Source: a virus. Taken from it: a DNA stretch of 64,000 nt. Below the pieces are notes generated by a model that made no database searches, was not told the DNA's origin, and saw only the letters and a program-made list of their open reading frames with translations. Within the stretch, counting starts at the first letter, position 1, and the number at the start of each line of letters is the position of its first letter. Shown here piece after piece: positions 4,800 through 31,234 of the stretch. Position numbers and translations under genes: made by a program. The stretch spans positions 1 through 64,000 of the IMG/VR virus record IMGVR_UViG_3300027741_000040. The stretch is one strand, 5' to 3'.

Positions 4800-4834
4800 C
4801 CATTTAATTTAAAATTCTATGCCCTTCACTATAA

Positions 4835-4841: not shown

Positions 4842-4879
4842 TAAAGGCTAGACATTCTATCCTTCTAAAAGGGTCAAAT

Positions 4880-12033: not shown

Positions 12034-12052
12034 TAAATCGTGGGAGAGAATA

Positions 12053-13129: not shown

Positions 13130-13183
13130 GAGAAAATAAGAAAAATATTAAGGAATATTGTTTTAGGACCTAGGATTACAAAA

Positions 13184-13348
13184 ATGGAAGAACTGTTAAT
13201 GATAATAGGAAAATTGTATGTGGACATATACCAAACTCAAAAGTATATGGATTCTATACAACAGCAACTAAAAGAAAAGGATAATGAGATACTATCTCTT
13301 AAACAAAAACTTAGTGCAAAAGATAGAATAGATGGTAATGATAAATGA
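13184..13348 (+). CDS. Small coiled-coil protein (54 aa; not in the ORF track)
   Basis: Translated by hand: MEELLMIIGKLYVDIYQTQKYMDSIQQQLKEKDNEILSLKQKLSAKDRIDGNDK*. AGGA upstream; fills the gap between genes. Confidence 0.6.
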   Translation: MEELLMIIGKLYVDIYQTQKYMDSIQQQLKEKDNEILSLKQKLSAKDRIDGNDK

Positions 13349-14348: not shown

Positions 14349-14363
14349 TATAAGAGTAGACAA

Positions 14364-14648
14364 ATGACACAAATAGACAAGATCATAGCAGATATTGAAA
14401 CAAAATTTAAAACAACCATGATTGGTTCTTTGGCTAGGTTTGAAGAGTCTTTTGGACATCTATGGGAGGAAGAAGGCCCAGATCAACAAGAATATTTGGA
14501 CCTTTGGGAATATACCAGAAATTCAGTACTGAATAATGGTAATAAGCAAATGAGAGCGGCAGTTAATGATATATCCAATACTTTTTTAAACTCACCAAAA
14601 TCTAAAGTTACCTATAGATTTAATTACAGGAACGAAGGAGATCAATAA
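14364..14648 (+). CDS. Hypothetical protein (94 aa)
   Basis: Tightly packed ORF in the tail operon. Confidence 0.6.
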   Translation: MTQIDKIIADIETKFKTTMIGSLARFEESFGHLWEEEGPDQQEYLDLWEYTRNSVLNNGNKQMRAAVNDISNTFLNSPKSKVTYRFNYRNEGDQ

Positions 14649-14649
14649 T

Positions 14650-15637: not shown

Positions 15638-18600
15638 ATGACAGCAGCATTCAATTTAACAGCTCAATTGAATTTGAAAGGCCCAAGTAATATTGGGTCT
15701 ATAACATCGTCTATAAAAAAACAACTTGGTACAATTACTGCTAATGTTGACGTTAAGGTTAATGCTACCTCAATACAAAAAATTAGTCAGCTTAATGCTG
15801 GATTACAACAACTTAACAAGACATTATCGGCAACAACAGTTAGTGCAACATCTGCTGCCTCTGCTATTAAAGGATTAGGTCAGGCTTTTGGTGCTGTTAA
15901 TTTGAGTAGTTTGCCACAACAAATTTCAGCCACTTCAACAGCCCTAGGTCAAGTAAAGGGCCAGTCCGCTCAAGCTGCTAAAGCACTAGCTGCTTCAACT
16001 ACACAGATGGAAGAATTTGGCAAACAATCAGCATTAGCTGTTAGAAGATTTGCTGCTTTTAGTATTGTTACATCTAGTATTTATGCTTTAAATAATAGTA
16101 TAAATAGAGGTATAGAAGCTTTTATCGAATATGATCAGCAGTTTGTCAAACTGCAACAGGTTACAGGACAATCAGCAGATGGTCTAAAGTCCCTATCTAA
16201 AGAAATTACAACATTATCTGTAGGACTTGGTGTGAGTAGTGCTGCTTTAACAGATGTTGCTAGTACTTTAGCTCAGGCTGGTTTAAGTGCTCAAGACACA
16301 GAGAAAGCACTTAAAGCACTAGCCTTAAGTTCATTAGCTCCATCATTTGATAGTATGAATGAGACTGTAGAGGGCAGCATTGCAATAATGAGACAATTTG
16401 GTATTAGTGCTGGTGGTCTTGAAGGAGCATTAGGATCTATAAATACCGTTGCTGCTAAGTTTGCTGTTGAAGCTAGAGACATAATTACTGCTGTTCAGCG
16501 TACCGGTGGTGTGTTTGCTACGGCCAGTAAAGGAGTTACTGAAGGTACAGATGCTCTTAATGAATTTGTTGCTGTTTTTACAAGTATCAGAGCAACAACT
16601 CGTGAAAGCGCTGAAACTATTGCTACTGGTTTAAGAACAATTTTTACTAGAATTCAAAGAGGATCAACAATAGATGCCTTAAAGGAATTTGGAGTAAATC
16701 TACAAGATACTGAAGGAAAATTTGTTGGAGCCTATAAGGCCGTGGAACTATTAAGTAAAGGACTAAGTAGTCTCGATCCTAGAGATGCTAAGTTCTCAAA
16801 AATTGTAGAAGAGCTTGGCGGCTTCAGACAGATAGGTAAGGTTATTCCTCTTATTCAACAGTTTTCCGTTGCTCAAAATGCTTTAAAGGTCGCACAACAA
16901 GGACAAGGATCATTAGCAAAAGACGCAGCAACCGCACAACTGTCTTTAGCAAATCAAATTCAAAAAGTTAGACAAGAATTCTTGGCGCTATTTAGAGAGA
17001 TGGGACAAAGCCAAGGGTTTCAGGTTATGGTCAAAGCAACCTTATCATTAGCCAGTGGTCTTATTAAGGTTGTTAATGCTAGTAAGGGACTGCTTCCTCT
17101 TTTGGGCGTAATGTTAGCATTTAAGGGAGCTAGTGCCATAACTCAATTTGCTAGCGGTTTTGGCCAAGGACTAAAACCAGGAGCGGGCAAAAAAGACAGA
17201 GAAAAACCATTGTTCTCTCAAGGTGGTCCCGTAAGAGCCTTTGCTACCGGTGGCGTTGTACCAGGAAGCGGAGACGGAGACACTGTTCCCGCAATGTTAA
17301 CTCCTGGAGAATTTGTTATTAAAAAGCAAGCTGTTAAAGCTATTGGAGCTAATAAATTACATAGTATAAATAGATATGCTACTGGTGGTAAAGTTAAAGA
17401 TTTAGTTAATGATCCTAATGGTAAAAAATCTCTTAAAAAAGTCTATGATATAAATCAAGATTTTGATAGTTATGAAGATCCTACAATAGATAGAGTAGAC
17501 TTGGACAAAACATATGATCAGTATACACAACAATCTAAACAGATTTGGTTAGAAGCTAATAAAAAATACAAACAAGATTTAGCCGAAGGATACAAGCCCC
17601 AAAAAGGAGATATCCCCAAATTAGCAAATGCATATATAAAAAGAGAAACTGGTGGACTAGCTCAGAATCTTGGATTCAAAGAACTAAGAGAGCCTCAGAC
17701 AGCTAAAAAATTAAATAAAATTCGTGGAGCTTTAGCTGAAAATGAAGTTAAGAAAAGATATAAATTAGGAAATCCTCTCGCTTTACAAGATGGGGCTGAT
17801 TTTTATGATGCTAAAAATGAAAGATTCGTAGAAATCAAAAACCAGAAAAAACAATTAAAAGATTCTACTCTGATATCAAAAACATTACTAGCATTCGCTG
17901 CGAGAAAAGGTAACAAGTTAAATAATCAACCAGATCATGTTCCTAGTTTAAAAATTCTTGCTGTTGAAGCTCCAAGTCCAGATAAATACGATGAATTTGA
18001 AGAAAAAAAACTTGGTGGAGTAATTAATAAAAGAGCTGTGCGAGCTGTTGAATCTAAAACTTTTAAGAACATGAATCAATATGCTGGAGGTGGAGCAGTA
18101 GTAGTTAGAGATAGAGCAAACACAGATGACACCACAAAGCTAGATGAAGGTCTAGGCCAAATGGTGAATCAAGCATCTAGACAGTTTGGTAAAAAGGGAG
18201 CTCCTAAATTTATAAATGCCAAAGACATGCCAGGGTATCAAGCTATCAAAGGACATGTATTTGAAGAAGGATTGCGAATAGCTGGAGCATCGGCAGCAGA
18301 TAGTGCTGCTAATGCAGATTTTGATTATAATCCATGGTCTGGTAATAAGTCTTTTAGTAAACTTCCAGTATCAAAAACACCAATTGTAGACGCAAAAGCA
18401 TCTCTAGGTTCGGCCAGTAAAGCAGAGTTTATTAAAAAAATTAGTAATTTTAGACAGAAGAATCCAAACGATAATACCACAAATTTCGGCGCGGCAATAT
18501 TTGAAAATGAAAATGAAAAAGGAGGAGATCCAGAAGATATAAAGATTTCTGCAAAAGAAATAGCAGCATACGGCCAAAGTAAAAATAGTGGTGGTTTGAT

Positions 18601-21600
18601 CCAAAGATTTATTGATGGTGGCTGGGTTAAAAGAATGCAGCAGCAGTCACCAAAAGACCTTAACAAGGAACTGGATTTACTCGATTCTACATTAGACTTA
18701 TTTGGTTTTCAAAGAAAGGTTCCAATTAGCACATTTAGTAAATCGGCACCTTTTATGGAAGATGCGGGAATCAAAGAAGTTAGAGAAAGAATATCTGCCA
18801 TCAAAGAGTTTCTAGCTAGTAAAGAACCACAAAAAAAGAAAAAGACTGAGAAAGAAATAACTTTACCCAAAGCTCCATCTGGCATTTCTGATTATCTTAG
18901 GTCTTTAATTGAAAAAAATAAAATATATGATATAACAAACCAGTATGATGGTATTGTTAATCAAGCACTAAATGCAGCATATAAGGGAAATTTGGGACCA
19001 GGAAATAAACAACAGAATATGGATAAGGTTGGACCAAAAAGTATGGTTCGTTTCGCTCCGGACAGAGAATATATTGATGTATCTTTGGGTTCACTAGAAA
19101 AAGACATTCAATATATTGATAAAGTTAAAAAACTAAAGGGAGAAGATTCCGAAAGACTAGCTGCTAACAAAGGCTATACCGTTAGCGATATGTTAGATAC
19201 CGTTAGGGCATATCAGGCGATAGGTTTAGATGCAGCTATTAATACTGCTCTTGGCAGGAAAGATGACTTGAGTCAGTCATTAGCCGATACGTCAGATTTG
19301 AATAAAACAGAGAGGAAAAAGCTTGGTCCAGCAGTAGATCAGCCACTATCTTATTTTGTTGGATCATTAGATGCCGCCATGCAATTTTCATTACCAGAAA
19401 AATTATATAGTGGTATAGGAGCTAGTAAACAAAAACTATTTATAGAATCAGCTGGCGTAAAAATTAATAAACTAGAAGATACCAAAAAACTAGTTGGAAA
19501 AACTGTTAGCATACCTTCTTTCTTATCTACTTCAGAAGTACTAGATACAGCAGAAAGCTTTGTAAGAACAGGCATGATGACCATAGAAACAAATAAAAAA
19601 GCCAAAGGATTAAATCCAGAGAGAGCCAAGACAGATACGATTAACAGAGATAAATCAAAAATAAGAAAAATGGACCAGAGGCTCATTAGCGATTCTTTTG
19701 TCAAAGGCAAAGCCGATGAAAGTTTTGCTGACGATTATGATATCGAATCAGAATATATTCTACCAAGAAATTCTAAATTTAAAGTAAAAAACATAGAAGC
19801 TAAGGACAACAGTGAAGAAGGCGGAAATATTCTTGAATCGCTCAATATGGATTGGGCTGTAAAAATGTTAAATCGTGGAGGGAAAGTACAAAAATTTGTA
19901 GACGGTGGAGTAGCTCAACGAAAAGTTGGATATATTGATTATGATGTTATAGCTAATGAAACTAATAAAGATATTGTAGAAAAAGGCATGGAAGCAACTG
20001 GGCAAAAGGGTCCTAGACTATATACAGATTACCTAACGCAGCTTGCTGTTAGAGCACGAAAAGATAATAGTTTACAAAAACTAAGAGCAATATACGGAGT
20101 AGCTGGTAGTGGTAAAACAACACTAGCACGAGGTCAAGGAACAGACAATGCTACATTGCGCAAAACCGACAGATTTCCAGTACTATCTCCAGAAGATATT
20201 CAAAAAGCTACCGAAATATTAATACTAACTAGTAGCGTAAGTCAAACTAAAATGGATGATTTTTTTAGTGATGTTGATAGAGCATATACATTAAGTTCGA
20301 CTACTGACGCAGAAAGACAGGGAGTAAGGAGTAGAAAAGAATCAAGAGACATTACAGGTATTGGTTTAGAGAATCGCAAACCCGGAACTACTATGGGAGT
20401 TTCAACAGATAGTGCTGTTGGCGAAGCATTATTATCAGATAAGCTAGGATCAAAATCTACAGTATTAGGACGAAGTGATTCTGGCAGACTAAGAAGAAAG
20501 AGAGGAAATGAATTAGTAGACATTATCAAGAAGAGAATTGGTTTCACATGGGGTGGTTTTTCTCCCATGACAGCCGGTCATGAAAGCATCATGGAAGCAG
20601 CATCGGCTATGGGTATTCCTCCAGAAGATTTTATATATTTGGTTGGAGCAAATGAAGGAATTACTGATGATAAGGCATCAAGTTTCCGTACTGCAATTTT
20701 TGATCAGGATGCGAGAGTATTATTAGCTAAAGCTGGGGCTGGAGCAAAAGGAGCGACAGTATTACCAAAACCAAGAGACTTTGAAGTTCCACAAGCTTTT
20801 GATATTTCGCCGGAAAGTGGTCGTAGAAAAGTATTAATACCAGGAAAGGGTAGTACAGCATTTGTAGCAGATAAAACAGCAAAAGATTTAGAAAAATATA
20901 CATCTGCAGGATATAGCACAGTCAATTTGGAAAGATATGGCGGGATCAGCGGTACCATGGTTAGAGATTTAATAGCAGAAGGAAATCTTGGAGAATTACA
21001 GAAAATATTAAGCCCAGGAGTATATGATTTAATTTCTAATAATATTGGTAGGATCCAAAATAGAGCTAAAATTCTTCCAACAATAGTAGCAGATGTACAA
21101 AAAAGTCAGACTGTTAAACTCAAAGATGTAGAATCTGAAATTAAAGCAATTGGTATCAGTAGAATAGACCAAAAGAAAATGGACGATCCAGAATATGCAG
21201 CAAAAGCAGAAATATTATTGGATCTTAGAGAAAAGAAAAAGAAGATCCAAACTGCCGGATCTTTTGAACCATACAAATTATTAGATGCTTTAGCCCAAAA
21301 AGACCCTCAAAACTACGCCCTAGATTTCTCTTCACCAACAACTATGGCTAATGTTCCAGATATGAGAGTTATGGGACAAGGCCCACAAGCTCCTGAAGCT
21401 CCTATGCCAGTTGGTAGAGTTGCTCAATTAGCTCAAGAAAAAAATAAAAGTATTCAAGATGTTATACTAGAACAACTAGGAGGTTTGGGTGGTCCTGCTG
21501 GGGTTAAGAAAATACTTGGTATCGGTAGTGGAGATAGAACACTAAGCTCATTATTGCAAGCAGGAAATATTAAAGGTGGCAAAGGCTTAGAACAAGCAGC

Positions 21601-24600
21601 AGACTATGTTAATAGAGCATTAGCGGCTAGGGGAATAAGAGATGCTGCCGAAGCTAAAAGATTAGAAGAATATCAAGCTAAGGCTCTTCATTTTGGTATT
21701 GCCGGATTATTACCAATGGATTACTCAAAAGAATTTGAGTGGGATATTGGTGGTACTAGTGTTTACGCTACTGCTAGAGGTTTTGGTAGCGCATATTTGG
21801 AAGAAGCAAGACAAATGCAGAATGAGTCTTCAGCATTAGCTCAAAGATTTGCAGAAAATATACAAAATAAAAATATCTTTGGCGGTGGTGAAAGACTAGC
21901 TTTTGATTTCGATAAAACTTTAGTTGAGGATGCAGATATTCTCGATGCTAAGGGCAACCCTGATATTAAAAAATATGCAAATAGAGATGCTGTACAGCAG
22001 GCTCTCCAGAACGCAAGACCAACCAGACTAGCAGTTAAATTAAAATCTCTAATAGAACAAGATCCTCCATTTATTAAGAAAACCAGAATACTAACAGCTA
22101 GACCACAAAGCACAGCAGACCTTCTTGCTCAATCATTACAAAGTTTTGGTCTACCATATTCTGAACAAGATATTACAGGAGTTAGTGGTGGAGCTAGCAG
22201 CAATATTGCGGTATTAAAAGCTGCTAATTTACAACAAGAAGAAAAACTTATTGATGATAATTTAGAAAATATTATGGCTGTTCGCAAAGCTGGAAAAAAA
22301 GGTTTTCAGTACATAGAACCCAAGCCTACAACATCAGAATTAGATGAGAAAATGGGCCAGGGTAATATTGAGGGCGCCGTAGTAGAAAAAGCTTTGGCTG
22401 TATTAGGTGCTCCTGTAAGACCAAATGCTAAACAGAATAGAGCTATAGACTATCCTGATGGCTTAGGCAGTGCTGCCCAATTCTTTCCTGGTATTGATCC
22501 TGGTATTCCAACGGAAGTTAAAAGAACAATTGATGGTAGTAGTTTAGAAAAAGTTAGAGAAGAAATTGGAAGATATATAACAGGGGGAGCCGAAGCTGTT
22601 AAACTAGCTAGGGGAGGAGCTGTTCAAAGCTTTATGGCTGGTGGTAGGGCAGCTCCTCAGTCTCCGCCTAGAAAGTTTGCTGATGGCGGGTTAGTTCCAG
22701 GAATAGGTAATCAAGATACTGTTCCAGCAACTCTTAATGTTGGTGACTTTGTTATTAGAAAAAAAGCAGTAGAAACGATTGGGGTTTCTAAATTAGCAGG
22801 AATGTCAAGATATGCTAGTGGAGGTTCTGTAGATAAGGTTCCTGCTTTATTAACTCCTGGAGAGTTTGTTTTTAATAGACAGTCTGCACAGAAAATAGGA
22901 TATAATAAATTACATCAATTAAATCATGCTGATAAAATAGCGGGATATAATAATGGAGGAATGGTAGGAGGAGTTCAAGGATATGCTTCTGGAGGCGCTG
23001 TTACCATCAATAGCGCAATAGAAGATCTCATAACTTACCTTGCAAAAGGTATGAAGGCTACATCAGAAGCTAATCCTCCAAAACTAGTAGCTAGACCAGA
23101 TATTGTTGGTCGAGCAACTTTACAAGTTTCTGATAAAACAGTAGAGGTCATTAAAGCAATTAGTAAAGAACTTAACGATCTTGGTGTTAGTGTAAGTCAT
23201 GTTGCAGAATTAATGAAGATTGGTGGGGATATCAGCTATAAAGCCATGGAAAAGGCTATTAAAAAAGATATTGAAAGAATGACAATCGCTGGTGCCTCTA
23301 TCGAACAGCTTAGTAAAGCAGAAAGTACATTAGCAGTAGTTAGAACAGAAAGAATAGAAAATCTCAAGAAAACTCAAACATTAGAAGATAGTTTTAGAAA
23401 TTCTAGTATTGGTCAAAAATTTGGTTCGGGAGGAGCACAACAACAGATAATATCAGAATCTGACAGATTAGAAAAACTGATTGAAAATAAAAAGATAAAA
23501 GATATATCAAAAACATTAAATACTGGTCCTGGTGGTATGCTAGGAGCATCTTCGGAGGATATTAGAAAGAAAGCTACAGAGCTAGCGTCATCTCCGGAAG
23601 AGAAGGCTAAAACTAAACAATCGGCATATATTACGGCCGCAGCAAAAGTAACAGGAGTTAAAGTGTCTGATTTTAAATCTGCTGAGTTATCAGGAGCAGA
23701 TATTCAGAAATATATTGCTGAATCCATGAGAGATCGAAAAACTTTGGCAGATATGGACAAACAACTTATTGCTTTAAGAATGGAGGAATATAAGAACGTC
23801 AGTACTGTTAGAGGAATTTCTGTAAATTCAGCAAAAGAAGCAAGAGCACTAGCCGATGAAGAAGTGTCACAAAGAAGAGGAATTATTGATGACTTAGCTA
23901 GCGCCCAAGGAGAAGAGGGTGTCGGACCATCAGGAATCTGGGATTTGGCGAATAGCGTGATTGTTAAAAAACTACAAGGACTTACTCCGAGCGATTATAT
24001 TAATGGAGGAGCAACTATTGCTGGTTTTATGAGTGGCAATGGAAATGCTATTGCTCAAAATTTCTATGATACCAGCGATCAAGGAAGAATAGGAGCAGCT
24101 AGAACAGGAGCCGCTATTTCTAGCGCCGGAACAATTGCTAGCACAGGCTTAGGAATAGCTGCTCAAAGTTTGGCTCTTGGTCCTATTGGTCCTGTTGTTG
24201 CTGGTATTGTGGCTGCTGGAACTGGTATTCTTGCTTTAACCGATAGTATTTATGATTTTACCGGATCACAAGAAGCTGCTGTTAAAGAAGTAGAGAAGTC
24301 TCTTAGAGCAACTGAAATTAATGCAGCAACCGCTAGTTTAGATGATGCTTTTAAGAAATTTGAAAATGATATGAGTAATATTGATCTTCAAGAAGCTCTT
24401 AATAATGCATTATCTAATTCTGTAATGGCTCAGGCCAAAGATACTAGTGCTAATATTGATCAAGCAAAAGAAGACTATGCTTATCAAAATAGAAGTTGGG
24501 GAGACCTATTAAACTTTGATTTAGGTGGCAGCGCTCAGATGGATGCTGTTGAATTAAAAGAAGTTAATAGGGTAGAAGCAGAACGTTTTGCTCCTTTGGC

Positions 24601-27600
24601 AGATAAGGCGTATAAACAAATTCAAAACGAAATTAATGGCAATGCTTCTATAGAACAAATTATGAGCAATGACAAATTGCGTGGCGCTAGAGCAGCTATT
24701 GCGATGAGTACACCTGAGGGTATTTCAGAATATACGGCACAAAAAGCAGCAGAAGAGAAAGCCACCGGAAAACCAATTACTGAAGACGCACGCCAAGCAA
24801 TAATTGATGAAATAGCTGCTCGAAAAATTTCTACTAATGAATTTATCATATCATCAATCAAGGCTAAAGAAGTTGCTGATGCATTAGAGATGGCAAATTT
24901 GGCAGGACGAAAATTGGCACAAAGTTTTCAGAGACTATATGACAGTATTGATCAGGCTATTAATAAAAATAATTTTAATATTCAACAGAGAAAGACAAGT
25001 ACTGATTATTCTACTGGTGCCCTATCGGGAAATGCAGTTACTCCAGAACTTAATTCAAAAAATATTAATATACTAGATAATCCAAAAGCATATTCTACAA
25101 AAGAATTTAATAGTGCTATTAATGTTGCTTCTCAGTCATTACCAGCAGAAGACGCAGCAATGATAAAAGGTGCTGCTACATTACAAAGAAATTTAGCACC
25201 AGCCATAGAAGCAGAACTTAGAAAAACTTTGAGAACAGACGCTGGACTAACAGCAGAAGACGCAGCAAAACAAGCAAAAGAAATAGGAACAGCACAGGTT
25301 AAAGCCAAAGGTCTCCCTGTAGAAATGGAAGAAGCTATAATTAATCAACTTAATGCTTCTATAGATGCTAAAGTACAAGACGATAAGGTACAAAATGAAT
25401 TCAAAAACAGCCCTCAAGCTGCCACAGACAAATTTATTGAGAGTATTAGAGAAGCATCAGATACTATTATCGAAAATGCTGGTAAGGGAGGTATTGATAC
25501 ACTTAAGAAGTTGCTATCTTCTAGACAAGATATTTTTAATGATTTTGGGAAGAATTTAGCCAAATCCTCCGCTTTCCTTAAGCAGCATGCAGAATCTCTT
25601 GTTAAAGCTAAAAATATTATTGGTGATGCTAAGATGAATCTTAGAGAAGCATTAACTGGTGTTGGTGAGACTTTTGCTGAAGCTAAAGCCCGTTTTGATT
25701 CGGAAATATCTGATCTTACTGGGGGAATAACTGATCCTAAAGCGATCCGCGCAAATATACAAAATCTAGAGAAAAAAGGGGCAGCTCTTGTAGAACAAAG
25801 AAAGAATACTGATGATGAAGCTGCTATTGCAAAATTTACCACAGAAATTAATAAAACTAATGATGCTATTAACAATAATAGAGAAGGACTAGAAAGATTA
25901 GCTAATAGTTCTGAATTGGCAGCAAAAGCACTAGGTGAAGTTACTAAGATTAGAGATCTACAAAAAAATAGATCCGAAGTAGTTAACAAATTATTAACAC
26001 AAACTCCAGAAGAAGCCCAAAAGCTCAATGACACGTTTGTTAGACTGCAGAATAATTTAAGTGGAGGATTAAATACAGGAGCTAATTCTAGAGCGGCCAG
26101 AGAAGCTTTTAGTCAGGCTTTGCGAAGTGGAAGTTCATTACAAGGAGCATATCGAGCAGGAAATAGTGTTCTTGCACAACAGAGGCAAGAAACATTAGCA
26201 ATGTTCCAAGATCCCAATATTAGGGGTGCTCAAAAACTAGAGATGAAAAATCAGGCTATTCGACAAAACAAAACCTTATCAGACGAGCAGATAGAGGATA
26301 TATTAAATCAGCAAGAAGCCCAGCTAAAAACACAAATGGCCATAGAAACAGGACAAATCAATAATCCTATGGTTAGGGCAGATATTGAAGCAACCAAAAA
26401 TAGAAAATTTGATCCAGCCGCTGCACAAGCTGCTGACGAATATAATAAAATCACTAACAGACAGGCTAATGCTAATACTGAAATTGGAGGACTAGCATTA
26501 GTACAAAGTAGGCTAGTTAAATCTAACGATGAACTGAAAATAGCACTAGAGGGATTGACGTTAGAGATTCAAAATGCCAGAGGATTTGATGCCAAGGTAG
26601 AGGGCGGGAAAATGGGCGCTGCCGCTGCCGTAGCTGCCGGAAAAGGAGCTACTGTTGGAGCATCTCCTGCCGGAGGAAATGGTCCAAGGACCGTATACGC
26701 TAGCACGGGAGCTTTAATTAATTTTGAGCCAAAAGGAACAGATACTGTTCCTGCAATGTTGACTCCTGGCGAATTTGTTATTAATGCTAGATCAACAGCT
26801 GAACATCTTCCATTATTACAGGCTATTAATAATAGCAGGGGTGGGAGTATTGATGGATTTTCTAATGGTGGAATAGTTTATGCCCAAAAAGGGATACTGG
26901 TGCCAACGAAGAGAGAAACATCCCTTTCTGCTGATTATACCAGACTGTCTCGGGTTCAGCAGGGCAATATTACCGTGCGAGGAGATGAGTTAACAAGAGG
27001 ATCATATCGCGCTACCCTCGACCCTAGCGTTGTTATTCATCGAGCCATCAGTCCTGTTGGCGCTCCGGGGTATGATGGCAGTTCGTCTTCTGATGCTGTG
27101 CGCAATCCGGGCACTCCGTCGAGAACACAGGCGAAGGAACAAGCAAAAGCGAAGGACGCTGGTTACAATGCTATGGCTGAACGAATTCGTGCGGCACGTT
27201 CAACCGGCATAGGAGATGCTCCTAAAGTGTCATCGCTCGCACAACAAATGATGTATCTCCCAAACGGCAAGGTTAGACCTGTCCCAAGCAGAGAGATGCT
27301 TGACAAGTGGTCAGACATCGACGCACAGGCTGGCAGGAAGCGGCAGGACGGTGGTCATATTGCCGTACCGCCAGCTACACAGCCAGCGCCAGCCAAAGAT
27401 GCTGCTCAAACTCGACAAGCAGCACCCAACTCAAACAAAACTATGCAAAAGCCCATTCAGTGGGGTGGGTTTGGTTTCGGTTCTACACCGACGCCTGCTC
27501 CTGTCGGCGGTGAGTCACAGGTAGACAAGGCTATTAAACTGTTGCGGGCATTGAATCTGGGTGGAGACGCAAGTAAAAAAGAGTCTCAGGCTACAGACGA

Positions 27601-30600
27601 AGGTCAAAGAGAGCCAAAAACTAAGACCTCAGGATCAAAAGTAAAAAAATCTGAACAAACCTTCTTTGGTGGCACTCCATCGCAGATGGCTTCTCCTAAA
27701 TTTTCATTACCTTGGTTGTCTGCTGGTTCTAATTTTCCAAAACCGCGTAATATGGCTGAAATACAAATGTACAAAGAAGGCTTGTCTCGTGGTATGACAA
27801 TCCAACAGGTAAGAGACGAAAGAATACAAGCTTATAGATCAAGATTTCCATCAAGGAAAAATAATAGACAAACACAGAACTCTCAGGCTCCTTTTGGTAA
27901 TCTTAGTATATTTGGTTTTTCTGGTCTCTCCACCCTAAGTGGAGGAGAAGCAACATCAAAACCCAGCTATGACACTACTAGAACCAATAGTCCTCTTCTT
28001 CGTCCTCCAAAAGAACAAGCTAAAGTAATAAAAGAAGAAGCTAAACAGGCTCAAGAGCCATTAGCAGCAGCGCCCTCATTACCAGTAGCAGCAGCGCCCT
28101 CATTACCAGTAGCAGCAGCGCCCTCATTACCAGTAGCAGCAGCGCCCTCATTACCAGTAGCAGCAGCGCCCTCATTACCAGTAGCAGCTGGTTTAGACAG
28201 AGAAAAACAAAGAAATTTAGATCTAGCATATGAAAATATGGCCGAAAGAAGTAGGGCAAAGATTTTAGAGACCATAGGCCAAGAAGGAGCTTGGGATGTT
28301 AATGCTTATGATACTGCCTACCGCAGATTAATGAGATCTGGAACACCAACAAAAGAAAGATGGACGACAGAACAATTTAGACAAGCGGTTGAAAAAGAAT
28401 TATCTGGAATGTCTCCGGAATATGCTCGTAGACAATGGAAAGGAGTTACCCCATCTACCCACTATACTCAAAGTCCAGAATATAAGGCTAAACAGGAAAA
28501 AAAAGCCAAAGACAGAGAAGTTAAAGGACCATATGCTCCTGGATTACCTGGAGCAATAGACAAAGCTGCCGACCAGGTAATGACTGGAGTTGTATTACCT
28601 ATTACCGAAACTGTCGCTGGAGCTGCTACTGTTCTTAGATCTGGTAGTGGACCAGAGATGGACAAAAAATTAAAAGAAAACAGAGAAGCCTTAGGTGCTG
28701 ATGCTAGATTAGCTGAAGACGAAAAGAGAAAATTAATAGGAACAGATAAGAGTATTTTTGGAGGTAATGTTGGAGACAAGGTCTATTCTAAATTTTTACA
28801 GTTGCCTATTGGACAACAACAAGAATACCTAGATCTGAGAAAACGCGCTCAAACTAAAAAAGGACTTAGACAATCTGAAGCAGCTGATCTTAAAGAATAT
28901 ACTAGATTAGACTATTTTCAAAAAACTTTGGAAGTTCCATATCAGCAAAGAGAAAGAATTCCAACAGGTTATGAGTCTGACGTTAAAGACCCTGCGGCAA
29001 GCAAAAAATCATCCGATAAAATGACAGATATGAGAGATCTTCGTGCTGCTACTCCTTTATTAGGTAGTCGTAAGTATGTGGAAGGATTGCCAGCAGCTTT
29101 TGAAGAAGGAGCAACACTAGGAACAGTTTTGACTAAAGAATCTAGTGCTTATGGAGACAGAGCAACAGAAACAGTTGGTGGAACAGGACAAGTTGTTACC
29201 GGAACAGCCAAAGTAGGCTTTGGTTTAAGTGCGGCTGCATTAGCAGATAGAGTTGGTATGACCGGACTAGCATCTCCTAAGATAGTAAAAGCCTTGAAGG
29301 ATTCTTTTCTCGAAACAGCCAGATTAGGAGGTACTCAGGTTCAGTTAGGGGCATCAAAATATGGCAAAAATGCAGGTGTAGATTCAGCTTTAGCTATGGT
29401 TTATGGAGAAAGCTCTCCTCAAGCAACTTTTTATGCTGATCAACAAAAAGTTCAACAAAAACAATTTGATACTACTTTCCAAAAACAAAAAGCACAAGCC
29501 GAAGCTTTAGCTCCTGGATTCGGAACAAGCTACGAACGAGCAGAGAACTTATCTCAAGCAGCATATGGCGCAGCGACCACAGCGGCCATGCAACAGGTTG
29601 CTGTTGGGGCATTTACAAAACCTTCTATGTCTCCAGCAAAAACATTCACTCCAGCAGAAAATGCGGCTCGCTCCGGAACCAATCAAAAATTAAATGATGT
29701 ATTTACTGGAAAAAAACAGATAGTTCGCCCGTCGATAGATATAGAGCCAGAATTTAATAAGTTTTTAAAACGCCCAATTGTTGGAGAGCTCCCACCTCCA
29801 CAAGATATGGCACTAGATAGATTTTTAAAGCGCCCAATTATTGGAGAGCGTCCCTCTATTTCAAGTCCAGAACTAGATCAATTTTTGGGACGTACTGCAC
29901 AAACACCAGTAAATCCACAACTTCAAAACATACGATGGGCCATGCCGCGCAAGCCGGGATCGGCGGTATGGAACCAGCCATCCAAACCATCATCATGGAA
30001 TGGAGCTTCGCAGCCGTCACCAGGTCCTGTTACGAAACAATTGGAAAGGCTCCCACGAGTTCGGGCTGTCAAGAACTATACGAATAAGTATGGAAACCCA
30101 TCTGAAGATTCTGATTTAGTTATACGAAAACAATTAGACATATCACGACGTCAGAATGTCAGAAGGTTTATGAATGGGGAAAATGATGTTGGAGCTCCTA
30201 TTGATTCAACTCCTAGCGTTTCTTCAACAGGCACTACATTCCCTTCTGCTTCTCCAGCAGTATTCCCAAGGCCACAGATAGCAACACCTAGTGAGCCATT
30301 GTTTCCAACCCTTACAAAATGGGGTCGATCACTTAAAAGTTTAGCTGGTGGTATATGGAATATATCGACACCAGGGAATATTTTCTATACGGGTGGTAGC
30401 AGTGCTTCCCTTAGATATTTATTATCTGGAGGAGGTGAGCAGCAGGATAAACCACAGACAAAGAAAGTAAAGAGACCACAAAGAAAAGCAAATGTAGGTA
30501 TGATATCTACTGGATATACTGCTGAAGGAAAACTAGTCCCTTTATCCTTTGGTCCTACAGCTAAATATTCCACAGGAGGGATAGTATATGCAAATAACGG

Positions 30601-31234
30601 AGCACTAATAGAGACCCGTTCACAAGGAACAGACACCGTTCCCGCCATGTTAACTCCTGGTGAATTCGTTGTGAACAGAGCATCCGCACAAGAACATATG
30701 CCATTACTACAAGCTATTAATAATAGAAATTATGAAAGCGGCGGGTTAGTAAAGTATATGGCTCAGGGAGGTGTTGTTACTCCTCAATATAAGGATGTAG
30801 GAGGAGCTATCGGCAGCTTAGCATCCTCAAGTATTTTGGGTGCTGGACTAGACATGGGAGCGATTAGCGAACTAGCAAAAGAATTACCAAGACTCAAACA
30901 AGCATTTGGGTCATTTGAGAAATTATCAGAATTTACACAAAGTTTTGATAAACTTACACAAAATATGGGTACTAATTTAACCGGATTTGCGGAAACAGTA
31001 GCCAATATGCCAAGACAGATGGAGCACTCTCTAAAAGCTATTGTTAATGGCACTATTAATAGCAATATTCCTGGTGCTACCACTCAAATAGTTAATAGTA
31101 GACATGAGGCTCAAATAGTTTATGACCAAAATAATCAAAGACTAGACAGAGCCAGCGAAGGGGCTTTTTCACGATCAGATCCAGCAATCATGAGAGGAAC
31201 AAGTGGTGCCGGAGGCACTCGTTCTAATGCATAA
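15638..31234 (+). CDS. Giant tape measure protein (5198 aa) with embedded enzymatic cargo domains
   Basis: N-terminal TP901-type TMP core (FIEYDQQFVKLQQVTG...LAQAGLS...ETIATGLRTIFTRI...EELGGFRQ), long helical A/E/K-rich regions, and hydrophobic segments near 17030-17165 and 24090-24245. AGGA RBS; canonical position after the chaperone-like genes. Confidence 0.9.
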   Translation: MTAAFNLTAQLNLKGPSNIGSITSSIKKQLGTITANVDVKVNATSIQKISQLNAGLQQLNKTLSATTVSATSAASAIKGLGQAFGAVNLSSLPQQISATSTALGQVKGQSAQAAKALAASTTQMEEFGKQSALAVRRFAAFSIVTSSIYALNNSINRGIEAFIEYDQQFVKLQQVTGQSADGLKSLSKEITTLSVGLGVSSAALTDVASTLAQAGLSAQDTEKALKALALSSLAPSFDSMNETVEGSIAIMRQFGISAGGLEGALGSINTVAAKFAVEARDIITAVQRTGGVFATASKGVTEGTDALNEFVAVFTSIRATTRESAETIATGLRTIFTRIQRGSTIDALKEFGVNLQDTEGKFVGAYKAVELLSKGLSSLDPRDAKFSKIVEELGGFRQIGKVIPLIQQFSVAQNALKVAQQGQGSLAKDAATAQLSLANQIQKVRQEFLALFREMGQSQGFQVMVKATLSLASGLIKVVNASKGLLPLLGVMLAFKGASAITQFASGFGQGLKPGAGKKDREKPLFSQGGPVRAFATGGVVPGSGDGDTVPAMLTPGEFVIKKQAVKAIGANKLHSINRYATGGKVKDLVNDPNGKKSLKKVYDINQDFDSYEDPTIDRVDLDKTYDQYTQQSKQIWLEANKKYKQDLAEGYKPQKGDIPKLANAYIKRETGGLAQNLGFKELREPQTAKKLNKIRGALAENEVKKRYKLGNPLALQDGADFYDAKNERFVEIKNQKKQLKDSTLISKTLLAFAARKGNKLNNQPDHVPSLKILAVEAPSPDKYDEFEEKKLGGVINKRAVRAVESKTFKNMNQYAGGGAVVVRDRANTDDTTKLDEGLGQMVNQASRQFGKKGAPKFINAKDMPGYQAIKGHVFEEGLRIAGASAADSAANADFDYNPWSGNKSFSKLPVSKTPIVDAKASLGSASKAEFIKKISNFRQKNPNDNTTNFGAAIFENENEKGGDPEDIKISAKEIAAYGQSKNSGGLIQRFIDGGWVKRMQQQSPKDLNKELDLLDSTLDLFGFQRKVPISTFSKSAPFMEDAGIKEVRERISAIKEFLASKEPQKKKKTEKEITLPKAPSGISDYLRSLIEKNKIYDITNQYDGIVNQALNAAYKGNLGPGNKQQNMDKVGPKSMVRFAPDREYIDVSLGSLEKDIQYIDKVKKLKGEDSERLAANKGYTVSDMLDTVRAYQAIGLDAAINTALGRKDDLSQSLADTSDLNKTERKKLGPAVDQPLSYFVGSLDAAMQFSLPEKLYSGIGASKQKLFIESAGVKINKLEDTKKLVGKTVSIPSFLSTSEVLDTAESFVRTGMMTIETNKKAKGLNPERAKTDTINRDKSKIRKMDQRLISDSFVKGKADESFADDYDIESEYILPRNSKFKVKNIEAKDNSEEGGNILESLNMDWAVKMLNRGGKVQKFVDGGVAQRKVGYIDYDVIANETNKDIVEKGMEATGQKGPRLYTDYLTQLAVRARKDNSLQKLRAIYGVAGSGKTTLARGQGTDNATLRKTDRFPVLSPEDIQKATEILILTSSVSQTKMDDFFSDVDRAYTLSSTTDAERQGVRSRKESRDITGIGLENRKPGTTMGVSTDSAVGEALLSDKLGSKSTVLGRSDSGRLRRKRGNELVDIIKKRIGFTWGGFSPMTAGHESIMEAASAMGIPPEDFIYLVGANEGITDDKASSFRTAIFDQDARVLLAKAGAGAKGATVLPKPRDFEVPQAFDISPESGRRKVLIPGKGSTAFVADKTAKDLEKYTSAGYSTVNLERYGGISGTMVRDLIAEGNLGELQKILSPGVYDLISNNIGRIQNRAKILPTIVADVQKSQTVKLKDVESEIKAIGISRIDQKKMDDPEYAAKAEILLDLREKKKKIQTAGSFEPYKLLDALAQKDPQNYALDFSSPTTMANVPDMRVMGQGPQAPEAPMPVGRVAQLAQEKNKSIQDVILEQLGGLGGPAGVKKILGIGSGDRTLSSLLQAGNIKGGKGLEQAADYVNRALAARGIRDAAEAKRLEEYQAKALHFGIAGLLPMDYSKEFEWDIGGTSVYATARGFGSAYLEEARQMQNESSALAQRFAENIQNKNIFGGGERLAFDFDKTLVEDADILDAKGNPDIKKYANRDAVQQALQNARPTRLAVKLKSLIEQDPPFIKKTRILTARPQSTADLLAQSLQSFGLPYSEQDITGVSGGASSNIAVLKAANLQQEEKLIDDNLENIMAVRKAGKKGFQYIEPKPTTSELDEKMGQGNIEGAVVEKALAVLGAPVRPNAKQNRAIDYPDGLGSAAQFFPGIDPGIPTEVKRTIDGSSLEKVREEIGRYITGGAEAVKLARGGAVQSFMAGGRAAPQSPPRKFADGGLVPGIGNQDTVPATLNVGDFVIRKKAVETIGVSKLAGMSRYASGGSVDKVPALLTPGEFVFNRQSAQKIGYNKLHQLNHADKIAGYNNGGMVGGVQGYASGGAVTINSAIEDLITYLAKGMKATSEANPPKLVARPDIVGRATLQVSDKTVEVIKAISKELNDLGVSVSHVAELMKIGGDISYKAMEKAIKKDIERMTIAGASIEQLSKAESTLAVVRTERIENLKKTQTLEDSFRNSSIGQKFGSGGAQQQIISESDRLEKLIENKKIKDISKTLNTGPGGMLGASSEDIRKKATELASSPEEKAKTKQSAYITAAAKVTGVKVSDFKSAELSGADIQKYIAESMRDRKTLADMDKQLIALRMEEYKNVSTVRGISVNSAKEARALADEEVSQRRGIIDDLASAQGEEGVGPSGIWDLANSVIVKKLQGLTPSDYINGGATIAGFMSGNGNAIAQNFYDTSDQGRIGAARTGAAISSAGTIASTGLGIAAQSLALGPIGPVVAGIVAAGTGILALTDSIYDFTGSQEAAVKEVEKSLRATEINAATASLDDAFKKFENDMSNIDLQEALNNALSNSVMAQAKDTSANIDQAKEDYAYQNRSWGDLLNFDLGGSAQMDAVELKEVNRVEAERFAPLADKAYKQIQNEINGNASIEQIMSNDKLRGARAAIAMSTPEGISEYTAQKAAEEKATGKPITEDARQAIIDEIAARKISTNEFIISSIKAKEVADALEMANLAGRKLAQSFQRLYDSIDQAINKNNFNIQQRKTSTDYSTGALSGNAVTPELNSKNINILDNPKAYSTKEFNSAINVASQSLPAEDAAMIKGAATLQRNLAPAIEAELRKTLRTDAGLTAEDAAKQAKEIGTAQVKAKGLPVEMEEAIINQLNASIDAKVQDDKVQNEFKNSPQAATDKFIESIREASDTIIENAGKGGIDTLKKLLSSRQDIFNDFGKNLAKSSAFLKQHAESLVKAKNIIGDAKMNLREALTGVGETFAEAKARFDSEISDLTGGITDPKAIRANIQNLEKKGAALVEQRKNTDDEAAIAKFTTEINKTNDAINNNREGLERLANSSELAAKALGEVTKIRDLQKNRSEVVNKLLTQTPEEAQKLNDTFVRLQNNLSGGLNTGANSRAAREAFSQALRSGSSLQGAYRAGNSVLAQQRQETLAMFQDPNIRGAQKLEMKNQAIRQNKTLSDEQIEDILNQQEAQLKTQMAIETGQINNPMVRADIEATKNRKFDPAAAQAADEYNKITNRQANANTEIGGLALVQSRLVKSNDELKIALEGLTLEIQNARGFDAKVEGGKMGAAAAVAAGKGATVGASPAGGNGPRTVYASTGALINFEPKGTDTVPAMLTPGEFVINARSTAEHLPLLQAINNSRGGSIDGFSNGGIVYAQKGILVPTKRETSLSADYTRLSRVQQGNITVRGDELTRGSYRATLDPSVVIHRAISPVGAPGYDGSSSSDAVRNPGTPSRTQAKEQAKAKDAGYNAMAERIRAARSTGIGDAPKVSSLAQQMMYLPNGKVRPVPSREMLDKWSDIDAQAGRKRQDGGHIAVPPATQPAPAKDAAQTRQAAPNSNKTMQKPIQWGGFGFGSTPTPAPVGGESQVDKAIKLLRALNLGGDASKKESQATDEGQREPKTKTSGSKVKKSEQTFFGGTPSQMASPKFSLPWLSAGSNFPKPRNMAEIQMYKEGLSRGMTIQQVRDERIQAYRSRFPSRKNNRQTQNSQAPFGNLSIFGFSGLSTLSGGEATSKPSYDTTRTNSPLLRPPKEQAKVIKEEAKQAQEPLAAAPSLPVAAAPSLPVAAAPSLPVAAAPSLPVAAAPSLPVAAGLDREKQRNLDLAYENMAERSRAKILETIGQEGAWDVNAYDTAYRRLMRSGTPTKERWTTEQFRQAVEKELSGMSPEYARRQWKGVTPSTHYTQSPEYKAKQEKKAKDREVKGPYAPGLPGAIDKAADQVMTGVVLPITETVAGAATVLRSGSGPEMDKKLKENREALGADARLAEDEKRKLIGTDKSIFGGNVGDKVYSKFLQLPIGQQQEYLDLRKRAQTKKGLRQSEAADLKEYTRLDYFQKTLEVPYQQRERIPTGYESDVKDPAASKKSSDKMTDMRDLRAATPLLGSRKYVEGLPAAFEEGATLGTVLTKESSAYGDRATETVGGTGQVVTGTAKVGFGLSAAALADRVGMTGLASPKIVKALKDSFLETARLGGTQVQLGASKYGKNAGVDSALAMVYGESSPQATFYADQQKVQQKQFDTTFQKQKAQAEALAPGFGTSYERAENLSQAAYGAATTAAMQQVAVGAFTKPSMSPAKTFTPAENAARSGTNQKLNDVFTGKKQIVRPSIDIEPEFNKFLKRPIVGELPPPQDMALDRFLKRPIIGERPSISSPELDQFLGRTAQTPVNPQLQNIRWAMPRKPGSAVWNQPSKPSSWNGASQPSPGPVTKQLERLPRVRAVKNYTNKYGNPSEDSDLVIRKQLDISRRQNVRRFMNGENDVGAPIDSTPSVSSTGTTFPSASPAVFPRPQIATPSEPLFPTLTKWGRSLKSLAGGIWNISTPGNIFYTGGSSASLRYLLSGGGEQQDKPQTKKVKRPQRKANVGMISTGYTAEGKLVPLSFGPTAKYSTGGIVYANNGALIETRSQGTDTVPAMLTPGEFVVNRASAQEHMPLLQAINNRNYESGGLVKYMAQGGVVTPQYKDVGGAIGSLASSSILGAGLDMGAISELAKELPRLKQAFGSFEKLSEFTQSFDKLTQNMGTNLTGFAETVANMPRQMEHSLKAIVNGTINSNIPGATTQIVNSRHEAQIVYDQNNQRLDRASEGAFSRSDPAIMRGTSGAGGTRSNA
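17396..18004 (+). other. TMP domain: PD-(D/E)xK nuclease-like domain 1
   Basis: GALAENEV...DGADFYD...FVEIKN fits the E...D...ExK restriction-endonuclease-fold pattern. Confidence 0.55.
18095..18580 (+). other. TMP domain: PD-(D/E)xK nuclease-like domain 2
   Basis: KGHVFEEGL...ADFDY...IVDAKAS. Confidence 0.55.
19190..19860 (+). other. TMP domain: VIP2/Alt-like mono-ADP-ribosyltransferase
   Basis: VRAYQ...AINTAL, LYSG (normally LYRG), SFLSTS and ESEYILPRNSKFKV (ExE motif). Confidence 0.8.
20070..20500 (+). other. TMP domain: P-loop NTPase/kinase-like
   Basis: Walker A motif AIYGVAGSGKTTLAR at about 20087-20130. Confidence 0.7.
20530..21060 (+). other. TMP domain: HIGH-superfamily nucleotidyltransferase (CTP_transf_like; NadD/CoaD-type)
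   Basis: IGFTWGGFSPMTAGH (T/HxGH motif) and C-terminal ISGTMVRDLI...LSPGVYDLI (ISxTxxR motif). Confidence 0.8.
21890..22315 (+). other. TMP domain: HAD-superfamily phosphatase
   Basis: Motif I LAFDFDKTL, motif II ILTAR, motif III K, motif IV LIDDN. Confidence 0.8.
22350..22600 (+). other. TMP domain: PD-(D/E)xK nuclease-like domain 3
   Basis: IEGAVVEKAL...AIDYP...PTEVKRT. Confidence 0.5.
28062..28188 (+). repeat. Perfect 24-bp coding tandem repeat, about 5.3 copies (AAAPSLPV)
   Basis: GCAGCAGCGCCCTCATTACCAGTA repeated 5 times identically from 28064. Confidence 0.95.
29746..29895 (+). repeat. Degenerate 60-bp coding repeat, about 2.5 copies (FLKRPIxGE)
   Basis: EFNKFLKRPIVGELP / ALDRFLKRPIIGERP / ELDQFLGR at a 20-aa period. 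Confidence 0.8.

Follow-up and report, generated by a model that had tools for sequence, protein, structure and literature searches.

The question raised by this locus, which lies in a window of 64,000 nucleotides from an uncultivated virus record (IMG/VR IMGVR_UViG_3300027741_000040), is whether a tail tape measure protein could serve as the vehicle for enzymes that act in the host cytoplasm, as the initial annotation had proposed. The tape measure identity of the carrier holds: TIGR01760 matches aa 149-459 with an E-value of 3.3e-28 (98.7 bits against a cut-off of 28.8), and the same core is matched by PF10145 (E 7e-22) and by the PHROG tape-measure families 28, 4211 and 14917. Based on these profiles, the gene codes for the tape measure of the long tail of a large, uncultured phage. 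About 1,700 aa of globular modules precede the helical body in the first half of the reading frame, every motif quoted in the initial annotation was found in its place, and both of the hydrophobic segments that it had described are present (Table 1). We read the slot between the TP901-type core and the helical body as filled with independently folding enzyme cassettes, namely, from the N-terminal side onward, a probable PD-(D/E)xK nuclease, another nuclease-like module, an ADP-ribosyltransferase (ART) variant, a P-loop NTPase with a HIGH nucleotidyltransferase, and a HAD phosphatase.

Table 1. Features of the tape measure gene, with positions in the window.
Feature	Residues (aa)	Position (nt)	Strand	Remarks
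Whole tape measure ORF	5,198 aa	15638..31234	+	Single uninterrupted reading frame
TP901-type tape measure core	149-459	16082..17014	+	TIGR01760, PF10145, PHROG matches
Hydrophobic segment 1	461-502	17018..17143	+	Kyte-Doolittle 19-residue window, peak 1.56
Gly-Gly doublet and lambda-gpH-type module 1	529-590	17222..17407	+	GG..DTVPAMLTPGEFV..YATGG
Cassette 'nuclease-like 1'	592-787	17411..17998	+	Probable PD-(D/E)xK fold
Cassette 'nuclease-like 2'	827-973	18116..18556	+	Motifs FE..FDY..DAK
Bipartite linker GGLIQRFIDGG	985-998	18590..18631	+	Boundaries of alignments to relatives cluster here
ART cassette	1000-1412	18635..19873	+	PF03496
ART fold core	1199-1391	19232-19810	+	Within ART cassette
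Bipartite linker GGKVQKFVDGG	1414-1427	19877..19918	+	46 alignment starts within aa 1410-1419
P-loop NTPase domain	1425-1630	19910..20527	+	Walker A G1487-T1494
HIGH nucleotidyltransferase	1631-1808	20528..21061	+	T1645-A-G-H1648, I1770-SGTMVR
Long helical hairpin and helix/sheet domain	1809-2075	21062..21862	+	Structure model
HAD phosphatase	2078-2229	21869..22324	+	D2090-x-D2092, T2153, K2194, D2206-D2207
'Nuclease-like 3'	2240-2306	22355..22555	+	VE..D2271..EVK; constant family element
Gly-Gly linkers and lambda-gpH-type modules 2 and 3	2316-2460	22583..23017	+	
Hydrophobic segment 2	2837-2872	24146..24253	+	Peak hydropathy 1.91
Module 4 and Gly-Gly doublet	about 3680-3750	26675..26887	+	
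Module 5 and Gly-Gly doublet	about 4978-5050	30569..30787	+	

The insert had been credited with about seven enzyme domains, of which four folds are supported (ADP-ribosyltransferase, P-loop NTPase, HIGH nucleotidyltransferase and HAD phosphatase) and a fifth, nuclease-like 1, is probable, while nuclease-like 3 has to be withdrawn. Profile and structure searches recovered the ART, HIGH and HAD folds, whereas matches were weak for the P-loop family and for nuclease-like 1. The model of the HIGH domain aligned over 151 residues with the NaMNAT 4rpi_A (VIA Z 13.5, rmsd 2.6), with PPAT (Z 13.3) and NMNAT (Z 13.2) close by and a Foldseek match to PPAT at E 2e-5; its relatives matched PF16581 in eight of eight and PF01467 in six of eight cases, all below threshold, and an NMNAT/PPAT-type nucleotidyltransferase fold is thereby supported. 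The predicted structure of the HAD domain, with the motifs D2090-F-D-K-T2094, T2153-A-R and D2206-D2207, likewise supports a phosphatase of the T4-Pnkp/AphA type, its VIA matches being the T4 Pnkp phosphatase 5uj0_B (Z 11.7), 1ltq_A (10.9) and Pnkp1 4xrp_A (10.8), and that of Foldseek AphA (E 2e-4). The P-loop domain, in which the Walker A motif reads G1487-VAGSGK-T1494, was modelled as an alpha/beta fold with block-mean pLDDT mostly of 77-93 outside a disordered loop; at family level the evidence is weak, namely E 0.044 for a gluconate kinase and 0.76 for leads of the AAA_33 type.

The ADP-ribosyltransferase claim stands with one qualification. PF03496 matched aa 1175-1415, scanned alone, above its gathering score (29.0 bits against 23.4, E 8e-7), five out of six relatives match this profile too, and the motifs LYS1258G, S1297-T-S and E1370-S-E1372 are present; however, the NAD-binding Arg of R-S-E enzymes is replaced by Ser, Thr or Ala in all relatives, and by Ser here. 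The domain thus appears to be a C3/VIP2-type variant without the first catalytic Arg, which may be inactive or act differently. Nuclease-like 1 (E701..D721..E732-I-K734), modelled with a pLDDT of 79-97, probably has a PD-(D/E)xK fold, although its matches to such nucleases are weak (Foldseek E at least 5e-3, VIA Z at most 4.0); across 10 aligned relatives E701, D721 and K734 never vary and E732 hardly does. Relatives of nuclease-like 2 number only two (P0037 and P0062, about 35% identical), and the E, FDY and DAK motifs are retained in all three sequences; its structure model stays below a pLDDT of 50, and aa 868-897 match the HMM of nuclease-like 3 weakly. Nuclease-like 3 occurs once in 74 of the 75 family proteins and so belongs to the constant portion of the protein, not to its cargo; conservation is at least 90% for its D, T, K, R and T and 60-90% for both Glu, and it gave no fold match.

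The homologue set comprised 74 proteins of 3,511-7,733 aa, all of them metagenomic. In 64 relatives, 243 cargo segments fell into about 27 cassette families, with a cargo length of 389-3,003 aa, and the orthologue comparison suggested at the outset showed that cassette presence, absence and order vary, as relatives gain, lose and reorder cassettes. The P-loop/HIGH cassette and the HAD cassette, for instance, are found apart in many relatives, and a cassette boundary lies near aa 1890-1910 within the helical hairpin and helix/sheet region. Alignment breakpoints concentrate at Gly-Gly linkers of the form GGxhxxFxxGGxh, and the modules on either side of the whole slot are homologues of the C-terminal lambda gpH module (an HMM built from the Gly-Gly modules matches gpH aa 731-786 with 20.3 bits). 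As read from these alignments, the points of cassette exchange are the Gly-Gly linkers adjoining the lambda-gpH-type modules. Across 31 sequences the P-loop, HIGH and HAD domains keep their catalytic motifs at 90% or more, the G and K of Walker A included. On median values the cargo (59%) matches the core (66%) in conservation and greatly exceeds the helical body (29%), and dN/dS of the cargo is 0.12-0.24 (0.115 for nuclease-like 1, 0.20-0.24 for the ART); judged by these ratios, the cargo is under purifying selection. The claim that the insert holds enzyme folds with cytoplasmic substrates is thus borne out by supported folds and conserved catalytic motifs.

The closest published precedent is gp96 of the Thermus phage P23-45 (also in P74-26, G20c and TSP4), a fusion of tape measure and virion RNA polymerase in which the N-terminal part of the 5,002-aa protein transcribes pre-early genes; an enzyme within a tape measure can thus work on the phage genome as it enters the cell (Chaban et al. 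2024, PMC10770324). Giant size (5,198 aa here) is common to the two tape measures, as are hydrophobic segments and an N-proximal enzyme of a cytoplasm-acting kind, here assigned by fold, which is missing from some relatives. P23-45 differs in carrying a single enzyme, a two-barrel RNA polymerase of demonstrated activity, whereas the present tape measure lacks an RNA polymerase and instead carries a row of unrelated cassettes (ART, nucleotidyltransferase, kinase-like, phosphatase and nuclease-like) swapped at Gly-Gly linkers. The polyvalent proteins of phages and conjugative elements (Iyer et al. 2017, PMC5512222) are similarly large and multidomain, combine ART, nuclease and nucleotide-handling domains in highly variable architectures and are predicted to enter the host together with DNA; however, the domains described there are carried by MuF, portal, head or conjugation proteins (the word 'tape' is absent from that paper), while here a tail tape measure carries them, and a repeated linker sets the cassettes apart.

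Single components of the cargo also have counterparts. The ART is by Pfam of the C3/VIP2/Alt R-S-E type, as is the packaged ART Alt of T4, and the HAD domain is structurally closest to the phosphatase of T4 Pnkp, a tRNA-repairing kinase-phosphatase, with a P-loop domain nearby. In contrast to Alt, which travels in the head, and to Pnkp, which is made after infection, both fold types are here fused to a tape measure, the ART without its Arg and the P-loop domain only kinase-like; the 96 kb of this genome (66% complete) yielded no RNA ligase. As in NAD salvage enzymes of the NadR/NadM type, an NMNAT-fold transferase adjoins a P-loop domain; with the AphA-like phosphatase that the protein also carries, they would be enough to turn NMN or NR into NAD, and NAD-centred counter-defence genes of phages have been discussed (PMC7824862). 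The domains stand in another order than in NadR, the HIGH motif has the TxGH form of PPAT, and Nampt was looked for and not found.

Here we propose that the cargo represents virion-carried enzymes of the tape measure that are delivered to the host cytoplasm, a reading we hold to be likely, if by no means certain. The cargo would travel inside the virion as part of the tape measure and, given that it occupies the head-proximal half, as the RNA polymerase does in P23-45 gp96, would exit the tail just before the DNA. It would then arrive in the cytoplasm and, prior to the expression of any phage gene, act on proteins or nucleic acids of the host by modifying them, or process NAD-type nucleotides or broken RNA ends. 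NAD, ATP and nucleic acids, on which enzymes of these folds work, belong to the cytoplasm. The membrane topology put forward in the initial annotation, in which the two hydrophobic segments would leave the block on the cytoplasmic side of a protein spanning the inner membrane, may apply in this reading. More weakly inferred, by analogy with lambda and T5, is that the Gly-Gly linkers are cutting sites freeing single enzymes. Both lambda gpH and T5 pb2 are cut in or beside a glycine motif: gpH in a glycine-rich region at about aa 691-730 (PMC12617516), which adjoins the match to our module (GG..GEFV..IG..L..YAxGG, homologous to gpH aa 731-786), and pb2 after R1127 (PMC10038345), at a site reading FVPR before and AEGGMMY after the cut. 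Since the module HMM did not match T5 pb2, the likeness to the T5 site is that of a short motif. Both proteins also have hydrophobic segments, and gpH forms an envelope-spanning channel; unlike the present protein, whose five modules bracket two variable regions, they have one such module each and no cytoplasmic-type enzymes, T5 having a muralytic peptidase. Speaking against delivery, it is not obvious how folded domains of 20-45 kDa, present in three or six copies, could fit into a tail-tube lumen about 4 nm wide unless they were unfolded or lay in single file, and even in lambda there is no known route for the passage of any tape measure segment across the inner membrane (PMC12617516).

A late polyprotein whose Gly-Gly linkers are cut while the tail is being assembled or earlier would avoid this difficulty in that folded domains need not fit the tube; its enzymes would remain unpackaged in the producing cell, where they might, for example, preserve NAD or tRNA pools against abortive-infection systems. 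Every cassette is bounded by linkers, and the T5 and lambda tape measures are cut during assembly, but there the cut fragment remains in the virion, and the enzyme of P23-45 is a virion enzyme as well. The cassettes moreover sit between the core and the helical body, both required in the tail, and excision would sever the ruler unless both parts work as separate pieces. Fusion to a structural protein would also be an odd way of expressing a soluble late enzyme, and we consider late action, including such protection, unlikely.

Somewhat less probable still is a mainly structural role, in which former enzymes are retained for their shape as tail-length spacers or lumen plugs. Longer tails have longer tape measures, the first catalytic residue of the ART is missing, and nuclease-like 3 is constant and apparently non-enzymatic; however, the catalytic motifs of the HIGH, HAD, P-loop and nuclease-like 1 domains are conserved or invariant down to about 30% identity, which would not be expected of mere spacers, and relatives with similar cores differ about eightfold in the length of their cassette content. 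We think it very unlikely that the cargo works in the cell envelope or periplasm. Nearly all enzyme domains characterised in tape measures hydrolyse peptidoglycan (PMC12617516), with the virion RNA polymerase of P23-45 as the sole exception found, and AphA, a structural neighbour of the HAD domain, is periplasmic, but the ART, P-loop and HIGH domains require NAD or ATP, which are absent from the periplasm, and a lytic domain was looked for in the cargo and not found. That the cassette combination is an assembly chimera joined at similar linkers is hardly credible, for although the order nuclease-like 1, nuclease-like 2, ART, P-loop is unique among the 64 relatives, the reading frame is intact across 15.6 kb, the linkers are short and differ in sequence from one another, each cassette and most junctions recur in relatives from independent metagenomes (nuclease-like 1 at 97% in P0004, and the ART through nuclease-like 3 in one 1,552-residue alignment to P0002), and the cassette finding would hold in the relatives even if the order here were wrong.

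Taken together with the delivery reading that we favour, the swappable modules of this tape measure family suggest that the phage tail may bring ready-made enzymes into the host.

The tape measure protein is encoded by a single ORF of 5,198 residues in a source record of 95.8 kb (IMG/VR; completeness 66% according to CheckV), whose first 64 kb make up the window. TIGR01760 identifies a TP901-type core at its N-terminus (98.7 bits vs a cut-off of 28.8, E 3e-28), PF10145 (78.7 bits vs a cut-off of 33.2) and several PHROG tape measure families also match the ORF, and it has a long helical body and a module like the C-terminal one of lambda gpH. All motifs quoted in the initial annotation, as well as the two hydrophobic segments said to flank the enzyme block, were found in the ORF. 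Two ORFs of 1,817 and 1,729 residues with matches to tail and baseplate PHROGs lie 3' of the tape measure and belong to a series of very large ORFs (1,817, 1,729, 2,233 and 2,528 aa), two of which match tail, baseplate and virion PHROGs and the 'regulator of chromosome condensation' repeat family. The six ORFs immediately 5' of the tape measure gave zero PHROG matches at E 1e-3, and three of them are similar in size (423, 418 and 358 aa). No tRNA genes were found in the window, and an NCBIfam scan left the cargo, namely the enzyme cassettes between the core and the helical body, without matches.

Features of the tape measure ORF and of its surroundings
Feature	Window (nt)	ORF (aa)	Reading
Six upstream ORFs	9513-15546		no PHROG matches
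Tape measure ORF (+)	15638-31234		tape measure protein
TIGR01760 match		149-459	TP901-type core
Hydrophobic segment 1		461-502	
Claimed enzyme block	17213-23002	526-2455	
nuc1 (nuclease-like 1)		592-787	probable PD-(D/E)xK fold (model)
nuc2 (nuclease-like 2)		827-973	
ART cassette		1000-1412 (scanned with PF03496: 1175-1415)	predicted ART-fold variant
ART motif S-T-S		1297-1299	
ART insert	19600-19780	~1320-1380	
ART motif E-x-E		1370-1372	
P-loop domain		1425-1630	P-loop NTPase, supported by model
HIGH domain		1631-1808	nucleotidyltransferase, supported by model
HAD domain		2078-2229	HAD phosphatase, as modelled
nuc3 (nuclease-like 3)		2240-2306	constant family element, from sequence
Bipartite linkers		529, 985, 1414, 2326	putative cutting sites
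Hydrophobic segment 2		2837-2872	
Second variable region	26890-30560	~3750-4975	Pro/Ala/Ser-rich
AAAPSLPV x5	~28061-28189	4142-4184	tandem repeat
Downstream large ORFs	31292-63014		

The P-loop, HIGH and HAD domains were modelled as one piece (aa 1425-2320) with aligned metagenomic relatives, at a mean pLDDT of 81.7. The HIGH domain matched the fold of NaMNAT (4rpi_A, Z 13.5, rmsd 2.6, 151 residues aligned), of PPAT (Z 13.3) and of NMNAT (Z 13.2), with an rmsd of ~2.7 over ~150 residues across these structures, and Foldseek returned PPAT at E 2e-5 and probability 1.0. Conservation is 90% or more in both of its motifs, T1645-A-G-H1648 and I1770-S-G-T-M-V-R1776, and the model supports a HIGH-signature nucleotidyltransferase with a Rossmann-like fold. 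In addition, sub-threshold Pfam matches were seen to PF16581 in all eight of eight relatives and to PF01467 in six of the eight, and TmcAL gave longer structural matches (Z 9.5), the matches spanning NMNAT, PPAT and TmcAL and with them several candidate substrate classes (NMN, phosphopantetheine, tRNA or other). The HAD domain matched T4 Pnkp phosphatase 5uj0_B (Z 11.7), 1ltq_A (10.9), Pnkp1 4xrp_A (10.8) and AphA (9.5), and its motifs I-IV (D2090-F-D-K-T, T2153, K2194, D2206-D2207) are at least 90% conserved; as modelled, it is a HAD phosphatase of the T4 Pnkp / class B acid phosphatase type. In the P-loop domain the Walker A motif GVAGSGKT is conserved and the model, whose block-mean pLDDT is mostly 77-93 except in a disordered loop, has strand, loop and helix in the expected places, which supports a P-loop NTPase domain of alpha/beta fold. 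For a kinase family such as AAA_33/Pnk or NadR RNK the leads were tentative, namely gluconate kinase (E 0.044) and AAA_33 (Atlas score 0.76), and the fold lists were taken up by HIGH and HAD matches. Against PDB sequences, the P-loop/HIGH profile gave marginal matches only (MJ0951, gluconate kinase, NaMNAT and NadR), as did the ART profile (binary enterotoxin, Vis and Tre1), and single-sequence searches with the four cargo quarters gave nothing useful.

The ART cassette was recognised by PF03496 when scanned as a domain (29.0 bits vs a gathering score of 23.4, E 8e-7), as were five of six relatives, and the score falls to 21.3 bits when it is scanned within a 1,941-aa piece. The S-T-S and E-x-E motifs are invariant. 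The position of the catalytic strand-1 arginine, placed by motif spacing and not by structure, holds Ser1258 in the window and one of Ser, Thr and Ala in all relatives. Because this arginine is replaced in all relatives, the cassette reads, at the level of sequence, as an ART-fold variant (PF03496, C3/VIP2/iota type) rather than a canonical R-S-E enzyme. The insert between the two motifs carries an invariant arginine, R1348; its likeness to ubiquitin was marginal (E 0.03) and was taken as chance.

The three nuclease-like modules fared differently. For nuc1 the model is confident (pLDDT 79-97), and across 10 aligned relatives E701, D721 and K734 do not vary and E732 hardly does. In the model, helix 100-118 contains E701, D721 directly precedes strand 133-135, and strand 140-145 contains E732-x-K734, which puts these residues on the helix and strands expected for a PD-(D/E)xK core. 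Foldseek matches were nearly all to PD-(D/E)xK nucleases but weak, with none significant (PA endonuclease at E 5e-3, none lower); those to FAN1, NhoI and SgrAI were likewise weak (Z 3-4, at most 4.0), and a wide structure search with nuc1 gave nothing above noise, its top match (Z 5.2) being unrelated. A PD-(D/E)xK fold is therefore best described as probable for the modelled nuc1. The second module, nuc2, has just two relatives, keeps E/D/DxK in the three sequences and was modelled at pLDDT below 50; its assignment to PDDEXK_14 (Atlas score 0.79) found no support in a direct family search, in which PF24579 did not match the genome. The HMM of nuc3 recognises nuc2, weakly. The Glu residues of nuc3 are 60-90% conserved, its modelled part comprises a helix-strand-strand-helix only, and it lies directly before the second lambda-type module. 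Since it occurs in single copy in 74 of 75 family members, nuc3 is a constant family element and not cargo. Thus, of the about seven enzyme domains proposed in the initial annotation, four folds are supported, nuc1 is probable and nuc2 a candidate, whereas nuc3 has to be withdrawn from the cargo.

The comparison of orthologs for presence or absence of cargo that had been suggested there showed cassettes to be gained, lost and reordered. A region-restricted search yielded 74 proteins of 3,511-7,733 aa, all metagenomic and nearly all with PF10145. Mapping on the query placed the P-loop/HIGH cassette in most relatives and the ART in ~20, with nuc1 in four of these and in six more from a separate search with nuc1 and nuc2, which returned only seven proteins out of 1.84 billion representative proteins, namely six giants (2,382-5,448 aa) and one 715-aa tape measure fragment. 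The nuc2 module was placed in three proteins. The HAD cassette is present with or without P-loop/HIGH, and in two metagenomic relatives, L009 and L010, the order is swapped so that the ART follows HAD. When the slot bounded by the first lambda-type module and by nuc3 was split at the linkers and the pieces were clustered, 243 segments from 64 proteins fell into 27 families, with a cargo length of 389-3,003 aa (median 1,001), and the cassette order of the window was unique among the 64 proteins. Alignment breakpoints cluster at the bipartite linkers, GGxhxxFxxGGxh. The cargo is under constraint, with a dN/dS of 0.12-0.24 vs close relatives; median identity is 59% in the P-loop-to-nuc3 block, 66% in the core and 29% in the helical body.

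Individual relatives show further arrangements. L009 (L009:7169-11254) and L010 place divergent P-loop/HIGH (31%) and HAD (33%) cassettes ahead of an ART 89% identical to that of the window, and a third giant tape measure (L017:8723-13807) has two ART cassettes, of 81% and 28% identity. Approximately 20 cassette families had no detectable similarity to the cassettes identified here; Pfam scans of five relatives left the remaining families unnamed, the few families tested matching nothing. Precomputed annotations of four relatives (P0008, P0013, P0028 and P0060) add other types of cargo, listing EF-hand (PF13202, PF00036), a staphylococcal-nuclease fold (PF00565, 'endonuclease YncB') and PF03983. 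Among GenBank phages there was no close relative, the core alone matching at 22-29% identity, and a search of 185,579 species, with a single genome for each, found no relative.

The lambda-type module, a unit of ~60 residues ([FY]AxGG..DTVPAMLTPGEFV..IG..L..N..YAxGG), occurs five times in the ORF and brackets both variable regions. The second of these, between modules 4 and 5, has almost nothing common to relatives and harbours the AAAPSLPV repeat. An HMM built from 276 units matched lambda gpH at aa 731-786 (20.3 bits) and did not match T5 pb2. Lambda gpH is cut within a glycine-rich region, leaving gpH* of ~691-730 residues (PMC12617516), and the cut in T5 pb2 follows R1127 (PMC10038345), where the sequence reads FVPR before and AEGGMMY after it. 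Given that both cuts fall at or beside glycine motifs, it is reasonable by analogy to regard the linkers as putative cutting sites.

Within the tail tube, which it fills, the tape measure has its C-terminus at the tip; it is expelled ahead of the DNA and contributes to the channel through the envelope (PMC10038345, PMC12617516). The cargo lies in the head-proximal half and hence would be the last part to exit, immediately preceding the genome. In P23-45, the RNA polymerase at the N-terminus of gp96 has a like position and transcribes pre-early genes (PMC10770324). As the cargo folds need NAD, ATP or nucleic acids, their site of action is predicted to be the cytoplasm, and we consider delivery into the host cytoplasm somewhat more probable than its failure. 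The main physical objection is that three or six copies of folded domains of 20-45 kDa would not obviously fit a lumen of ~4 nm.

With regard to what the P-loop/HIGH/HAD set might do, two predicted roles are about equally likely. RNA end-healing or tRNA-directed work is suggested by the T4 Pnkp-like phosphatase, the AAA_33-type leads and the TmcAL-like features, and NAD or cofactor salvage by the NMNAT/PPAT fold together with the AphA-like phosphatase. In the 96-kb record, itself 66% complete, neither an RNA ligase (PF09511, PF09414; the PF09511 control matched nowhere) nor Nampt (PF04095) was found. The occurrence of the P-loop/HIGH and HAD cassettes apart from each other in many relatives argues against a single obligate pathway for both.

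Tape measure proteins are viewed as rulers and channel formers and, besides cell-wall hydrolases, the RNA polymerase of P23-45 is to our knowledge the sole enzyme shown to ride on one. P23-45 offers a published precedent for a single-enzyme fusion, whereas the ORF described here carries several cassettes, and no account of tape measures with more than one cassette came up in the literature searched. The polyvalent proteins likewise unite a number of conflict-type domains within a single protein of the virion or transfer apparatus, with a variable architecture among orthologues, and the paper describing them makes no mention of tape measures (Iyer et al. 2017). By analogy, the product of the ORF may, like them, enter the recipient cell together with the DNA.

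Here we speculate that large uncultured phages of one widespread lineage might use the tape measure as a programmable injection cargo rack, in which the Gly-Gly linkers would act both as recombination joints for cassette exchange and as sites where cleavage frees individual enzymes, and from which a changing set of ready-made enzymes (ART variant, NTase/kinase, phosphatase and nucleases) would reach the cytoplasm before the genome and disarm NAD-depleting or RNA-cutting defences, a tentative scenario that we rate as rather unlikely as a whole. If true, such a rack, with the tail ruler as its scaffold, would be the phage counterpart to polymorphic toxin systems. A large family of tape measures bearing exchangeable enzymes with cytoplasmic substrates would turn the lumen of the tail into a cargo hold additional to the head, and would extend the polyvalent protein concept to proteins of the tail. 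In addition, such a family would give direct handles on how segments of the tape measure cross the inner membrane and on what cuts tape measures at glycine motifs, and the cassette slot can be read as a catalogue of candidate counter-defence enzymes.
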